From the sequence record PQ438391.1: 64,000 bases of DNA; one strand, given 5' to 3'. Below are positions 2,465-47,062 of the stretch, piece after piece (the stretch's first letter is position 1; the number at the start of each line of letters is the position of its first letter). Below the pieces are notes generated by a model that saw only the letters and a list, made by a program, of their open reading frames with translations, did not search any database and had not been told where the DNA came from. Source of the stretch: Escherichia phage vB_Eco_T-01. A program made the translations under genes and the position numbers.

Positions 2465-2480
2465 GGGCTTCGGCCCTTTT
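2465..2480 (+). terminator. C(UUCG)G hairpin terminator
   Basis: GGGCTTCGGCCC followed by TTTT. Confidence 0.6.
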
Positions 2481-2515
2481 GGATGATAAAATTTTAACGT
2501 AATTGAGGATAATGT

Positions 2516-2842
2516 ATGACTATTCAAATTAAAAACGCCATCAATTCTTACGCATATGATAAAGTAGTTTCTCTGTTAGAAAAAGGCGATATTGTAACTC
2601 CTCAAATTTTGGATAAATGGGAAAAAGAGCTTCATCAGACGATGAAACAGAATGATCAGAAGATTGGACGCAATACTGTCCGTGAATTGTTGGTTCAATA
2701 TATCTTGTCAGAATTTGATGTTAAAGCTTTTGGTGTAGAATCTAAAGCTTATCAAAAGCATGAAATTTCCGATAAAACTATTCGTCGCATGAAAAATCAA
2801 CGCAAGAAAAAATTTGCAGACCTGAAAATTACTAAGGTATAA
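2516..2842 (+). CDS. hypothetical protein
   Basis: 108-aa ORF with GAGGATAA RBS. Confidence 0.45.
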   Translation: MTIQIKNAINSYAYDKVVSLLEKGDIVTPQILDKWEKELHQTMKQNDQKIGRNTVRELLVQYILSEFDVKAFGVESKAYQKHEISDKTIRRMKNQRKKKFADLKITKV

Positions 2843-2844
2843 TT

Positions 2845-3060
2845 ATGAACGAAGCTCTTATTAACGATTTACGTCTTGCCGGATATGAAGTAAATACAAA
2901 CGGCAATGGTTTAACTCAAATTGAGGGAAATGGATTCATCCTTGAGTATGAATTTAGCCAATGGTGGTTATATGCCAATTACGGCGAATTGATTGAATAC
3001 GTTGACCAATTTGATTCACTAGATGCAGCTCTTGAAGCGGCTAAGTTGATGAATGTATGA
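2845..3060 (+). CDS. hypothetical protein
   Basis: 71-aa ORF, tightly packed after the previous gene. Confidence 0.45.
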   Translation: MNEALINDLRLAGYEVNTNGNGLTQIEGNGFILEYEFSQWWLYANYGELIEYVDQFDSLDAALEAAKLMNV

Positions 3061-3326
3061 AATTTATTAATATTTCTATTACTATTGAAAATTATGGCAT
3101 TTTCTATGTTGACCAATACATGAAAATTTCATTTTTCCCAAATAAGACTGGTGTTGGATATTGGGAAAGCCATGTTTCTGAATTAAATGAAAGTGAATAT
3201 GTTAGTACACATGAAAAGTTTTTAGACTTTTTATATCATGCTGATCTAACTAGTCATTATATAGATATTCATGAATTTAAAAAGATGATGGAGAAAGTGT
3301 TCCAAGCATACTGCTTACTTAGATAA
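3057..3326 (+). CDS. hypothetical protein
   Basis: 89-aa ORF overlapping the previous stop (ATGA). Confidence 0.4.
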   Translation: MKFINISITIENYGIFYVDQYMKISFFPNKTGVGYWESHVSELNESEYVSTHEKFLDFLYHADLTSHYIDIHEFKKMMEKVFQAYCLLR

Positions 3327-3404
3327 CTGATATCCTCTATGCTTTAAGATAGATCTTCAAATATTATGATATAATAGATCTATGAATTGAGCTAAGAGGT
3401 GAAA

Positions 3405-3962
3405 ATGTCAGAAACTAAGCCTAAATATAATTACGTAAACAATAAAGAGCTTTTACAAGCTATTATTGATTGGAAAACAGAATTAGCAAATAATAAAGAC
3501 CCAAATAAAGTAGTTCGTCAGAATGATACTATCGGATTAGCCATTATGCTTATTGCAGAAGGCTTATCTAAACGTTTCAACTTTTCAGGATACACCCAGT
3601 CCTGGAAACAAGAAATGATTGCAGATGGTATAGAAGCTTCTATTAAGGGGCTTCACAATTTTGATGAAACGAAATATAAAAACCCACATGCATATATAAC
3701 TCAAGCTTGTTTTAATGCATTCGTCCAGCGTATTAAAAAAGAACGTAAGGAAGTTGCAAAGAAATATAGTTACTTCGTTCACAATGTCTATGACAGTCGT
3801 GACGACGATATGGTTGCGTTAGTAGATGAAACTTTTATTCAAGACATCTACGATAAAATGACGCATTACGAAGAATCAACCTATAGAACACCGGGGGCTG
3901 AAAAGAAAAGTGTTGTAGACGATTCTCCTAGTTTGGATTTTTTATATGAGGCTAACGATTAA
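3405..3962 (+). CDS. 55: late-transcription sigma factor gp55
   Basis: Protein [24 protein letters not shown]... recognised as T4 gp55 (185 aa); ATG at 3405 has a GAGGTGAAA RBS; the ORF-track start at 3399 is GTG. Confidence 0.92.
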
Positions 3963-4164
3963 CCTCTCCGGATTCTTGGAAGAAATACCTGAAGTTGAAG
4001 CTATTCCCTATTTACTTAAAATGTATCTCAGGGAAGTTTTAGCTCTTGACATTGATATTGATCCAGAAAATCCGTATGATACCGCTTTTAAATCTAATGG
4101 TGTAGAATTAAACTATCGGTATCATTTAACAGATGATGATTTTTATTTTATATTAGAGAAATAA
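3946..4164 (+). CDS. hypothetical protein
   Basis: 72-aa ORF overlapping the 3' end of gene 55. Confidence 0.35.
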
Positions 4165-4165
4165 T

Positions 4166-44653: not shown

Positions 44654-44713
44654 TTTAATGGCCGTGTGTATTCATGCGGCCTTGGAGTAGAAAATAATTT
44701 AGAGGAAATTAAT

Positions 44714-45172
44714 ATGAAATACATGACTGTTACTGATCTGAATAATGCAGGCGCTACCGTTATTGGTACAATTAAGGGCGGTGAATGGTTTTTGGGAACT
44801 CCACACAAAGATATTTTATCTAAACCTGGATTTTACTTTTTAGTAAGTAAATTAGATGGTCGTCCATTTAGTAATCCATGTGTGTCAGCACGATTTTATG
44901 TAGGTAATCAGCGTTCTAAGCAAGGATTCAGCGCAGTTCTAAGTCATATTCGTCAACGCCGGTCTCAGCTTGCTCGTACTATTGCAAATAATAATGTTCC
45001 ATACACAGTATTTTATCTGCCTGCTTCTAAGATGAAACCTCTGACGACAGGATTTGGAAAAGGCCAGTTAGCTTTAGCGTTTACTCGTAATCATCATTCT
45101 GAGTATCAAACACTTGAAGAAATGAACCGTATGTTGGCTGATAACTTTAAATTCGTTTTGCAGGCATATTAA
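44714..45172 (+). CDS. ndd: nucleoid disruption protein Ndd
   Basis: [28 protein letters not shown]... recognised as T4 Ndd; ATG at 44714 with GAGGAAATTAAT RBS. Confidence 0.85.
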
Positions 45173-45259
45173 TGAGTAATTTCCACAACGAACACGTGAT
45201 GCAGTTCTATCGTAACAATCTTAAAACCAAAGGCGTCTTCGGACGCCAGTGAGGAAAAT

Positions 45260-45418
45260 ATGAATATCGCAAAATTATTAGGAGTTATTTCATTTATTTG
45301 TTGGATAGTAGCATGTGTTTTAACTATCTGTATCGATGCTAGCAGTGTGTTTTCACAAGCTTTAGCCCAGGGTATGTGTGCATATTTAACATTTGTGTTA
45401 TTATCTACTAATGATTAA
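45260..45418 (+). CDS. hypothetical small membrane protein
   Basis: 52-aa hydrophobic ORF with GAGGAAAATATG. Confidence 0.35.
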   Translation: MNIAKLLGVISFICWIVACVLTICIDASSVFSQALAQGMCAYLTFVLLSTND

Positions 45419-45551
45419 GAAAATCTTGGGCTATTCATTAGCCCTTGCTACTTTATTGGTAGCACTATATTATGGAGTAATGTTCGGATTAATTCAAGTC
45501 GTGCTTTTCATTTCTGATGTTATTATGGCACTACATTCACTAGTATGGTAA
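45411..45551 (+). CDS. hypothetical small membrane protein
   Basis: 46-aa hydrophobic ORF overlapping the previous stop. Confidence 0.3.
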   Translation: MIKKILGYSLALATLLVALYYGVMFGLIQVVLFISDVIMALHSLVW

Positions 45552-45555
45552 ATTT

Positions 45556-46884
45556 ATGCAACTGAATAATCGCGATTTAAAAAGTATCATTGATAATGAA
45601 GCATTGGCTTATGCTATGTACACGGTTGAAAATCGTGCCATTCCAAATATGATTGACGGATTTAAGCCAGTTCAACGATTTGTTATTGCTCGAGCTCTTG
45701 ATTTGGCACGAGGAAATAAAGATAAGTTTCACAAACTTGCTTCTATTGCAGGTGGTGTAGCGGACCTTGGGTATCATCATGGTGAAAACTCTGCACAAGA
45801 TGCGGGGGCTTTGATGGCTAACACTTGGAATAATAATTTTCCTCTGTTAGATGGTCAAGGAAACTTTGGTTCTCGTACCGTCCAAAAAGCAGCAGCAAGT
45901 CGTTATATTTTTGCTCGTGTAAGTAAAAATTTCTATAACGTATATAAAGATACTGAGTATGCTCCGGTACATCAAGATAAAGAACACATTCCGCCTGCTT
46001 TCTATTTGCCTATTATTCCTACTGTTCTTCTTAATGGCGTTTCCGGTATTGCAACTGGTTATGCAACTTACATTCTTCCTCATAGCGTTTCTTCTGTCAA
46101 GAAAGCTGTATTACAAGCTCTTCAAGGAAAGAAAGTAACTAAACCGAAGGTAGAATTCCCAGAATTTCGTGGTGAAGTCGTTGAAATTGATGGGCAATAT
46201 GAAATTCGTGGAACATATAAGTTTACTTCACGAACTCAAATGCATATCACTGAGATTCCGTATAAGTATGATCGTGAAACTTATGTGAGTAAAATCTTAG
46301 ACCCACTTGAAGATAAAGGCTTCATTACATGGGATGATGCTTGTGGTGAGCACGGCTTCGGCTTTAAAGTTAAATTCCGTAAAGAATATTCTTTGAGCGA
46401 TAATGAAGAAGAACGCCATGCAAAAATTATGAAAGACTTCGGGTTGATTGAGCGTCGTTCTCAGAATATTACCGTCATTAATGAGAAAGGAAAACTGCAA
46501 GTTTACGATAACGTAGTTGATTTAATTAAAGACTTTGTTGAAGTTCGTAAAACTTATGTCCAAAAACGAATTGATAACAAAATCAAAGAAACTGAGTCAG
46601 CTTTTCGTTTAGCCTTTGCCAAGGCACATTTCATTAAGAAAGTAATTTCAGGTGAAATTGTTGTTCAAGGTAAAACTCGTAAAGAACTGACCGAAGAACT
46701 TTCGAAAATCGACATGTATTCTTCTTATGTTGATAAACTAGTTGGAATGAATATTTTTCATATGACTTCTGATGAAGCAAAGAAACTTGCTGAAGAAGCT
46801 AAAGCTAAAAAAGAAGAAAACGAATATTGGAAAACTACTGATGTAGTTACAGAATACACCAAAGATTTAGAGGAAATCAAATGA
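45556..46884 (+). CDS. 52: DNA topoisomerase II medium subunit gp52 (GyrA-like)
   Basis: 442-aa ORF recognised as T4 gp52. Confidence 0.95.
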   Translation: MQLNNRDLKSIIDNEALAYAMYTVENRAIPNMIDGFKPVQRFVIARALDLARGNKDKFHKLASIAGGVADLGYHHGENSAQDAGALMANTWNNNFPLLDGQGNFGSRTVQKAAASRYIFARVSKNFYNVYKDTEYAPVHQDKEHIPPAFYLPIIPTVLLNGVSGIATGYATYILPHSVSSVKKAVLQALQGKKVTKPKVEFPEFRGEVVEIDGQYEIRGTYKFTSRTQMHITEIPYKYDRETYVSKILDPLEDKGFITWDDACGEHGFGFKVKFRKEYSLSDNEEERHAKIMKDFGLIERRSQNITVINEKGKLQVYDNVVDLIKDFVEVRKTYVQKRIDNKIKETESAFRLAFAKAHFIKKVISGEIVVQGKTRKELTEELSKIDMYSSYVDKLVGMNIFHMTSDEAKKLAEEAKAKKEENEYWKTTDVVTEYTKDLEEIK

Positions 46885-47030
46885 GTCCATTCGTAGGTAT
46901 TACAAGCGCTGCGTTAGTATCTGGTGCCATTTTACTGGCGGGTTTAGGCGTTGTTCCAGCCGTAGCAGGAGGTCTTCTTGCGTTCGGAATTCAACGTGTT
47001 ATCACGATAGTTATCGCGTTTGAGCAGTAA
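46881..47030 (+). CDS. hypothetical small membrane protein
   Basis: 49-aa Gly/Ala-rich hydrophobic ORF overlapping the gene 52 stop; terminator follows. Confidence 0.35.
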   Translation: MSPFVGITSAALVSGAILLAGLGVVPAVAGGLLAFGIQRVITIVIAFEQ

Positions 47031-47035
47031 TTTTA

Positions 47036-47062
47036 GGGAGAGCCGAGGCTCTCCCTTTTTTA
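47036..47062 (+). terminator. rho-independent terminator after gene 52 region
   Basis: GGGAGAGCCGAGGCTCTCCC then TTTTTTATTT. Confidence 0.7.

Follow-up and report, generated by a model that had tools for sequence, protein, structure and literature searches.

Hairpins capped by a C(UUCG)G tetraloop were described in bacteriophage T4 by Tuerk et al. 1988 (PNAS 85:1364). A paper citing that work states that T4 is rich in CUUCGG hairpins, most of which lie between genes, and that reverse transcriptase is halted by them, and a 2022 preprint citing the 2003 T4 genome review gives CC-UUCG-GG as recurrent in T4 hairpins, as terminator or RNA stabiliser. A related arrangement is the PeSL (promoter-early stem-loop) cassette of T4-type phages, a stem-loop followed by a promoter, in which the stem-loop tested was an effective terminator (Arbiol et al. 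2010; Comeau et al. 2014). Here we analysed a 64,000-nucleotide (nt) stretch of Escherichia phage vB_Eco_T-01 (sequence record PQ438391.1), called the window below, in which a first-pass annotation had noticed repeated C(UUCG)G hairpins and taken them for intercistronic punctuation. The window hairpins are members of the class of Tuerk et al. and are in this sense already known. We propose that they are very probably RNA elements by which messages are ended or protected at the borders between cistrons in the polycistronic early, middle and late transcripts of the phage.

The likeness to the T4 hairpins is close. We examined 15 hairpins, namely 13 strong C(UUCG)G copies, a hairpin with the loop UCCG at 16143 and one with the loop CGAG at 47035, the latter two falling outside the strict class. 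Fourteen of the 15 have an alignable T4 counterpart at the same gene junction, and the strong copies share with the T4 class the loop, the closing C-G pair, the short G+C-rich stem, the mostly intercistronic location and the sense-strand orientation. Only the copy at the 37/38 junction, in a non-aligning, T2-type region of the window, has no such counterpart; T4 carries a CUUCGG hairpin of its own between these two genes. Apart from this copy and the loop of the gene 43 terminator (UCCG in the window, UCCA in T4), we found no essential difference. The thermal stability of the class is a property taken from the literature, and that of the window copies was estimated from nearest-neighbour energies. 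It was in this pattern that the UUCG tetraloop had its original natural example, and from it one sees how long transcripts are split into units in a T4-type phage. As this is textbook material, its rediscovery in a T4 relative adds little, and its use lies in annotation, in which the hairpins mark cistron ends and likely terminators in T4-like genomes.

In the window, CTTCGG was observed 32 times with 13.2 expected, and the 12-mer GGGCTTCGGCCC was present in 6 exact copies and in 9 copies with two or fewer mismatches (0.54 expected). When at least three further closing pairs were required next to C(UUCG)G, 14 hairpins were found, 12 on the + strand and two on the - strand, compared with 0.72 +/- 0.84 (maximum 4) in 300 dinucleotide-preserving shuffles, which bears out the repetition seen by the first-pass annotation. 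Thirteen of the 14 are strong copies, defined by a stem of 6-9 base pairs (bp) with at least four G-C pairs; they begin at 2463, 4829, 6099, 11409, 13358, 20231, 26434, 37277, 42558, 42787 and 45232 on the + strand and at 51379 and 56045 on the - strand. When sense-strand hairpins with a 4-nt loop were limited to stems of 5 bp or more that have three or more G-C pairs, C(UUCG)G appeared 13 times and any other listed loop at most once.

All 13 strong copies, including both in the late block, are on the mRNA-sense strand (binomial p = 1.2e-4), and the complementary loop C(CGAA)G was never found on that strand. Because the loop is asymmetric (its complement is CGAA), the sense-only orientation argues that the element acts in the RNA and not in the DNA duplex. 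Eleven of the 13 are non-coding (p about 2e-12) in a window that is 94% coding and 5.8% non-coding, and these start between -4 and +6 nt from the end of a stop codon, with the stop codon inside the stem at five sites (2463, 4829, 6099, 37277 and 42558). Together with stems that covary between relatives, as described below, this upholds the reading as intercistronic punctuation and matches the published T4 view. The two coding copies are in gene 40 and at the end of stp, so that the stp copy at 45232, which had been counted as intercistronic, has to be removed from that group. The fold-energy calculation suggested by the first-pass annotation predicted a hairpin at every listed site, with minimum free energies of -10.5 to -17.9 kcal/mol. 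No Rfam family was matched across the window at the gathering score. The copies have only about 16 nt of conserved sequence in common (AAGGGC-TTCG-GCCCTT) and the flanks are not conserved; for this reason the idea of a mobile repeat was rejected. Taken together, the results point to a real hairpin pattern with a role at the RNA level.

The hairpins are given below by window coordinates, strand and setting, with loops in brackets. The positions in the first-pass annotation agree with them to within a base or two, except for the gene 40 copy. Among the three loops that it had called UUCG-type, the one at 26435 is UUCG, the one at 16144 is UCCG and thus UNCG-type, and the one at 47036 is CGAG, which is not UNCG-type.

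2463..2478, + strand: AAGGGC[UUCG]GCCCUU; the stem overlaps the 55.3 stop, 37 nt before the 55.2 start; -10.5 kcal/mol; a short, weak U-run, UUUUGG, follows the stem; present in T4.
4829..4848, + strand: AUAGGAGC[UUCG]GCUCCUAU; the stem overlaps the a-gt.2 stop; no U-run; -16 kcal/mol; followed by the MotA-box-like ATTGCTTTA and a TAAAAT -10; identical in T4.
6099..6118, + strand: UAAAGGGC[UUCG]GCCCUUUA; the stem takes in the a-gt stop UAA; next come TTTAGCTTTA and, across a 12-nt spacer, TATAAT, arranged as in a middle promoter; identical in T4.
11409..11430, + strand: AUAGAGGGC[UUCG]GCCCUUUAU; junction of genes 45 and 44; no U-run; -13.2 kcal/mol.
13358..13375, + strand: AAGGGGC[UUCG]GCCCCUU; 2 nt past the regA stop, with the gene 43 start 58 nt downstream; GGAGTATAAT comes next, with TATAAT 8 nt beyond the stem.
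16143..16160, + strand: AGGGACC[UCCG]GGUCCCU; 12 nt past the gene 43 stop; -13.9 kcal/mol; U5, counting the last stem base; loop UNCG-type but not UUCG.
17870, + strand: the fourteenth C(UUCG)G copy, inside gene 42, GGTCTTCGGATT; four pairs including a G-U pair; weak and probably due to chance.
20231..20250, + strand: UCCCCCUC[UUCG]GAGGGGGA; gene 40 codons 16-22; no U-run; -16.7 kcal/mol.
26434..26455, + strand: AAGGACUCC[UUCG]GGAGUCCUU; 6 nt past the stop of a soc-like gene; U6; -15.1 kcal/mol; followed by GTTTAC and later TATAAT, an early-promoter-like pair; identical in T4.
37277..37294, + strand: AAAGGCC[UUCG]GGCCUUU; stem and 39.1 stop overlap; ahead of gene 39 come TTTAGCTTTA and, across a 12-nt spacer, TATAAT, arranged as in a middle promoter; identical in T4.
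42558..42575, + strand: UAAGGGC[UUCG]GCCCUUA; the rIIB stop UAA is in the stem; no U-run; the denB.1 Shine-Dalgarno sequence and AUG come next, with the start codon 13 nt away.
42787..42802, + strand: AAGGGC[UUCG]GCCCUU; 3 nt past the denB.1 stop; followed by UUGUUUU, the U-run being UUUUGUUUU when two stem bases are counted.
45232..45247, + strand: GGCGUC[UUCG]GACGCC; last six codons of the 26-codon stp; no U-run; ac start codon 12 nt downstream; identical in T4.
47035..47056, + strand: AGGGAGAGC[CGAG]GCUCUCCCU; after motA.1; U6; -17.9 kcal/mol; loop not UNCG; an early-promoter-like GTTTAC comes next.
51379..51396, - strand (late): AGAGGGC[UUCG]GCCCUCU; 1 nt past the gene 37 stop, with the gene 38 AUG 11 nt downstream; no U-run; -13.4 kcal/mol.
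56045..56066, - strand: GAGGGAGCC[UUCG]GGUUCCCUU; 3 nt past the gene 35 stop; -16.1 kcal/mol; followed by UUUUCUUU, U5 (counting the last two stem bases) and then CUUU; the late-promoter motif TATAAATA is directly next, upstream of gene 36.

The sequence after the stem divides the hairpins into two sets. The pattern of an intrinsic terminator, a G+C-rich hairpin with about five or more U, is present at 16143, 26434, 47035 and 56045 and, less cleanly, at 42787 and 2463. The hairpins at 16143, 26434 and 47035 look like intrinsic terminators, and those at 42787 and 56045 are terminator-like. Nine other copies (4829, 6099, 11409, 13358, 20231, 37277, 42558, 45232 and 51379) differ from intrinsic terminators in having only 0-3 U after the stem, and one of them is embedded in a purine-rich coding stretch. 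The first-pass annotation had taken the copies with a T-run for terminators and the rest for 3'-end stabilisers or processing sites. This interpretation is supported; which hairpin would terminate, which would stabilise, and how efficiently, we infer from the downstream sequence.

The mechanism that we propose is as follows. A short G+C-rich stem with a very stable C(UUCG)G tetraloop would be placed at or just past the stop codon of a cistron. With a U-run (16143, 26434, 42787, 47035 and 56045), it would serve as an intrinsic terminator or attenuator, and since several of these hairpins sit right ahead of the next promoter, transcription would restart there. At the nine sites that have no U-run, the 3' end of the mRNA would be formed or protected, either by pausing and partial termination or by blocking the host 3'-to-5' exonucleases; a T4 review names RNase II, RNase R and PNPase as enzymes that degrade T4 mRNA. 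The upstream message would then outlive, or exceed, the downstream one, and the amounts of neighbouring messages would be uncoupled, as for the abundant uvsX and the scarce 40-41.

Several hairpins without a U-run are joined directly to promoter elements. At 4829, 6099 and 37277 a MotA-box-like element and a -10 sequence follow directly after the stem; the box reads (T/A)(T/A)T(T/A)GCTTTA and is separated from the -10 by 11-12 nt. As the box abuts the stem, its first, A/T-rich bases come from the 3' stem arm. The hairpin at 13358 has no separate box, and its own GCTT is at about the position of a MotA box relative to TATAAT. As the MotA box of a gene 43 promoter this GCTT may be a coincidence, since relatives carry ACTT or other stems. 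The sequence GGAGTATAAT and its one-mismatch variants were observed 19 times in the window with 5.3 expected (exact sites at 13380, 33929 and 37310, and 16 one-mismatch sites), several of them just past hairpins. It is probably the extended -10 region of phage promoters, within which the RegB motif GGAG is also contained. A RegB cleavage site (GGAG) that creates a 3' end was considered for this sequence and set aside, as the motif resembles a promoter -10 region.

The junction of genes 45 and 44 was compared in loci retrieved with RegA as anchor. A strong hairpin shortly past the gene 45 stop is kept in 18 lineages, with gp45 identity down to about 51%. The stems vary (UGGGAGC, AAGGAGAC, UUGGGCC, AUGGGGC, AGGGAC, CCGGUC and GGAUGGUC), and the loop is mostly UUCG, with UACG in three lineages and UUUG, GAAA, a triloop or a pentaloop in a few. 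In a loop-aligned set of 17 sequences, all seven stem pairs had changed on both sides and 94% of the cells were paired, a result matched by none of 500 shuffles; because the best hairpin was taken for each junction these pair counts are partly circular. A control with mononucleotide shuffles of the junction sequences, which reached the observed hairpin energy in only 8 of 1800 trials, offsets this in part. At the regA/43 junction the stems also differ between relatives, the loop is UUCG, UACG, UCCG, GAAA or UUAC, and (G/T)(A/G)GTATAAT is within a few bases of the hairpin in most lineages. A U-run follows the hairpin at these two junctions in very few lineages, so the element there is not a canonical terminator. 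The persistence of UNCG loops through the turnover of the stems suggests that selection favours the greatest stability that a very short stem can have, and such a stem would suit the tight intergenic spaces of a genome that is 94% coding.

The stems at 2463-2478, 11409-11430, 16143-16160, 42558-42575 and 42787-42802 were compared with the T4 RefSeq sequence NC_000866, which differs from the window in the G/C runs of several of them. It has one base fewer at 45/44 (GGGCTTCGG-CC), in the gene 43 terminator (GG-ACC) and at rIIB/denB.1 (GG-CTTCGGCCC), and in the 55.3/55.2 stem it reads GCCTTT where the window reads GCCCTT. In OL964735, a T4 clone that was sequenced anew, the stems are complete at the three sites that could be compared (55.3/55.2, 45/44 and the gene 43 terminator). 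This suggests that the stem differences of NC_000866 are band-compression errors in the old reference and not real divergence.

The copy inside gene 40 is a clear case of an RNA structure that constrains a coding sequence. The first-pass annotation had correctly put it in gene 40, at 20225..20242, a position wrong by 7 nt: the hairpin CCCCCTCTTCGGAGGGGG occupies 20232-20249, with the full stem at 20231-20250, and encodes the peptide SPSSEGE. It starts 37 nt past the uvsX stop and falls inside gene 40 because the end of uvsX and the start of gene 40 overlap. It is made up of codons that this phage seldom uses (CCC is 2.7% of Pro, GGG 6.4% of Gly, TCC 4% and TCG 6% of Ser, and GAG 15% of Glu), and given the peptide, the joint probability of these choices is 2e-7. 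Relatives at 52-62% gp40 identity show no change at any synonymous site of the stem CCCCCUC/GAGGGGG, while adjacent codons vary freely, and the loop is UUCG or UCAG. Two sequences have CCU and GAA in place of CCC and GAG, a compensatory change from C-G to U-A in which both substitutions are synonymous. The comparison of synonymous sites across relatives that the first-pass annotation had recommended thus came out in favour of the hairpin.

A hairpin at +35-47 nt after uvsX is present in five groups with unrelated stems: Tequatrovirus (the window), the unclassified coliphage LF82-1, Jiaodavirus (UCUCCCUC[GGAA]GAGGGAGA, +41), Gaprivervirus (UGCGGAGGGAGC[UAAG]GCUCCUUCUGUA, +37) and Kanagawavirus (GAGGGCC[CUAGU]GGCCCUC, +47). 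In phages whose gene 40 is shorter, with a later start, the hairpin falls between the genes, as in Shewanella phage Thanatos-1 (AAGGGCC[UUAG]GGCCCUU), and in Yersinia phage JC221 the intergenic GGGGC[GUAAU]GCCCC is followed by U6, a plain terminator pattern. An Acinetobacter phage with a gene other than uvsX upstream of gene 40 has no hairpin at that place. As the hairpin tracks uvsX and is absent from the Acinetobacter phage, the element belongs to the uvsX end. In Tevenvirinae, as judged from these comparisons, the start of gene 40 is apparently laid over the post-uvsX hairpin. The first 25 or so codons of gene 40 (20186-20260) look like an extension that overwrites the hairpin; phages with an intergenic hairpin have a shorter gp40 of 91-101 amino acids that starts beyond it. 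In one IMG/VR genome, the C-run of the stem has one C fewer, which shifts the frame, and the open reading frame (ORF) then starts downstream of the hairpin.

For T4 itself, a 2025 Hinton laboratory paper, which cites Hinton 1989, deals with the 358 nt upstream of gene 41. It places an in vivo RNA 3' end right after a stem-loop in this region, where by its account more RNA ends in rho mutant hosts. The hairpin at 20231-20250 is the only strong one in the window stretch that matches the T4 358-nt region, and we infer that it is the counterpart of the T4 stem-loop. The positional and structural conservation of the post-uvsX hairpin in five groups and its overprinting by gene 40 were not found stated in the literature examined, and are modest extensions of the 1989 observation. 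A further idea, which we regard as speculative and rather unlikely, is that the hairpins without a U-run are conditional 3'-end sites, with read-through or decay tuned jointly by Rho and phage RNA-binding proteins (such as the LSm-like GoF family). As the founding example one would take the post-uvsX hairpin, an old element kept in position, and the peptides encoded over it (PSSEGE, PSEEGD, AEGAKAPS and EEGPSGP) would be dictated by the stem and not by protein function.

Several points weigh against the proposal that the hairpins end or protect messages. The literature searched gave nothing usable on the genome-wide mapping of 3' ends or terminators in T4. The identification of the T4 stem-loop upstream of gene 41 with the hairpin at 20231 is itself indirect, and the circularity in the 45/44 pair counts has to be borne in mind. 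A generic promoter and terminator scan of positions 1-20000 gave 22 terminator-like sites with 9.9 expected, a poor separation from background, and on the + strand it listed the hairpins at 16143 and 4829 and missed several other copies. Finally, several hairpins without a U-run directly precede a promoter or a Shine-Dalgarno sequence, and for these a role in initiation is conceivable.

This last point leads to the alternative that survives best. At 42558, 45232 and 51379 the Shine-Dalgarno sequence of the next gene begins 2-5 nt past the stem and the start codon 11-13 nt past it. There the hairpin could keep the Shine-Dalgarno sequence free of pairing, shield it from ribosomes arriving from upstream, or stabilise the 5' end of the message after cleavage; according to a T4 review, hairpins that shape translation initiation regions are known in T4. 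However, most copies are 22-70 nt from the next start, several have a promoter in between, and the gene 40 copy is 289 nt away. At 45/44 the distance to the start codon varies between lineages, whereas the position after the stop is kept. A translational role is thus plausible only for the three copies adjacent to a Shine-Dalgarno sequence, and as the account of those three copies we consider it unlikely.

It has also been proposed, for the PeSL cassettes, that such elements act as DNA. If the hairpins acted mainly in this way, they would be conserved GGGC...GCCC recombination patches at the borders of shuffled modules. The six exact copies of GGGCTTCGGCCC and the many hairpins that adjoin promoters would fit, as would the reports in the PeSL papers that tie cassettes of stem-loop and promoter to insertions and deletions in T4-type genomes and the T4 deletions that end at GGGC/GCCC motifs. 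Identity to T4 shifts sharply at 6099, 16143 and 26434. When 300 nt on either side of each hairpin were compared with T4, however, the change in identity at the hairpins was no larger than at 95 other gene junctions in this single genome pair (Mann-Whitney p = 0.56). A patch also would not be expected to have its asymmetric loop in sense orientation in 13 of 13 copies, or to let its stems covary instead of keeping their sequence, with a conserved part of only about 16 nt. Like the PeSL cassettes, the window hairpins have a G(n)-loop-C(n) stem-loop right before a promoter, but the early-like GTTTAC -35 is found only at 26434 and 47035; most copies precede middle promoters of the MotA-box type, the late TATAAATA or no promoter. 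Unlike the PeSL cassettes, many are between core replication genes and not in hyperplastic regions, with no excess of mosaic breakpoints in the comparison with T4. It is quite improbable that recombination is the main function, which the comparisons disfavour, and a secondary role in recombination may exist.

Still less probable is that the hairpins form a coordinated regulon as specific binding sites for an RNA-binding protein such as RegA, gp43, a member of the LSm-like GoF family or Rho. The loop sequence is indeed kept while the stems change, and the ending of T4 RNA upstream of gene 41 responds to rho alleles and to GoF(D25Y). Yet GAAA, UACG, UCAG, GGAA or triloops replace UUCG in some lineages, as fits selection for stability, the known gp43 operator is another hairpin with a UAAC-containing loop, and wild-type GoF had little effect in a reporter assay. 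That the hairpins are a by-product of base composition can be dismissed with near certainty, since apart from the weak copy at 17870 nothing speaks for it, and the shuffles refute it, as do the bias in strand and position and the conservation with covariation.

The gene content of the window agrees with the strands on which the hairpins were found. Megablast of positions 1-20000 and 40000-64000 against phage genomes gave full-length matches of 96-98% identity to many T4-like coliphages, and the source is a Tequatrovirus, a close relative of T4, with T4 itself ruled out. Nearly all T4 genes from nrdG to gene 32 could be placed in T4 order by tblastn with T4 proteins. The + strand is the T4 early and middle strand (nrdG, 55, a-gt, 47, 46, 45, 44, 62, regA, 43, 42, uvsX, 40, 41, 61 and 56, followed by 39, rIIA, rIIB, 52, motA and asiA), and the late genes t, 38, 37, 36, 35 and 34 are on the - strand at 49887-61063.

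Gene 39 is unsplit in the window, with 606 codons at 37347-39164, which differs from T4. The comparison with T4 proteins found no match in the window to the bypass-cassette genes 60.1 and mobA. The take-off stem-loop of T4 gene 60 bypass is also capped by CC-UUCG-GG, and the T4 copy, at position 2848, is caught by the same count; with gene 39 unsplit and 60.1 and mobA unmatched, no window hairpin serves bypass. Several T4 homing endonuclease genes are absent from the window. Compared with T4, a 207-codon ORF is extra between 47.1 and 47 (6278-6901), and a 282-codon ORF (18086-18934) occupies the position of b-gt and segA. For the gene 38 ORF of 263 codons (50576-51367), in the T2-type region, T4 gp38 gave no match, and gp37 too departs from that of T4 in its C-terminal part.

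A second kind of intergenic sense-strand hairpin was observed in the window, with A/U-rich stems of 10-16 bp and loops of 4-8 nt, at 10031-10066, 21974-22009, 28596-28630, 33790-33817 and 34893-34916. Some of these contain a promoter -10 sequence (GAGTATAA or GGTATA) in the loop or stem, and the stem at 28596-28630 buries the GGAGG and AUG of modB. They resemble the T4 initiation-region structures that block translation from long early transcripts.

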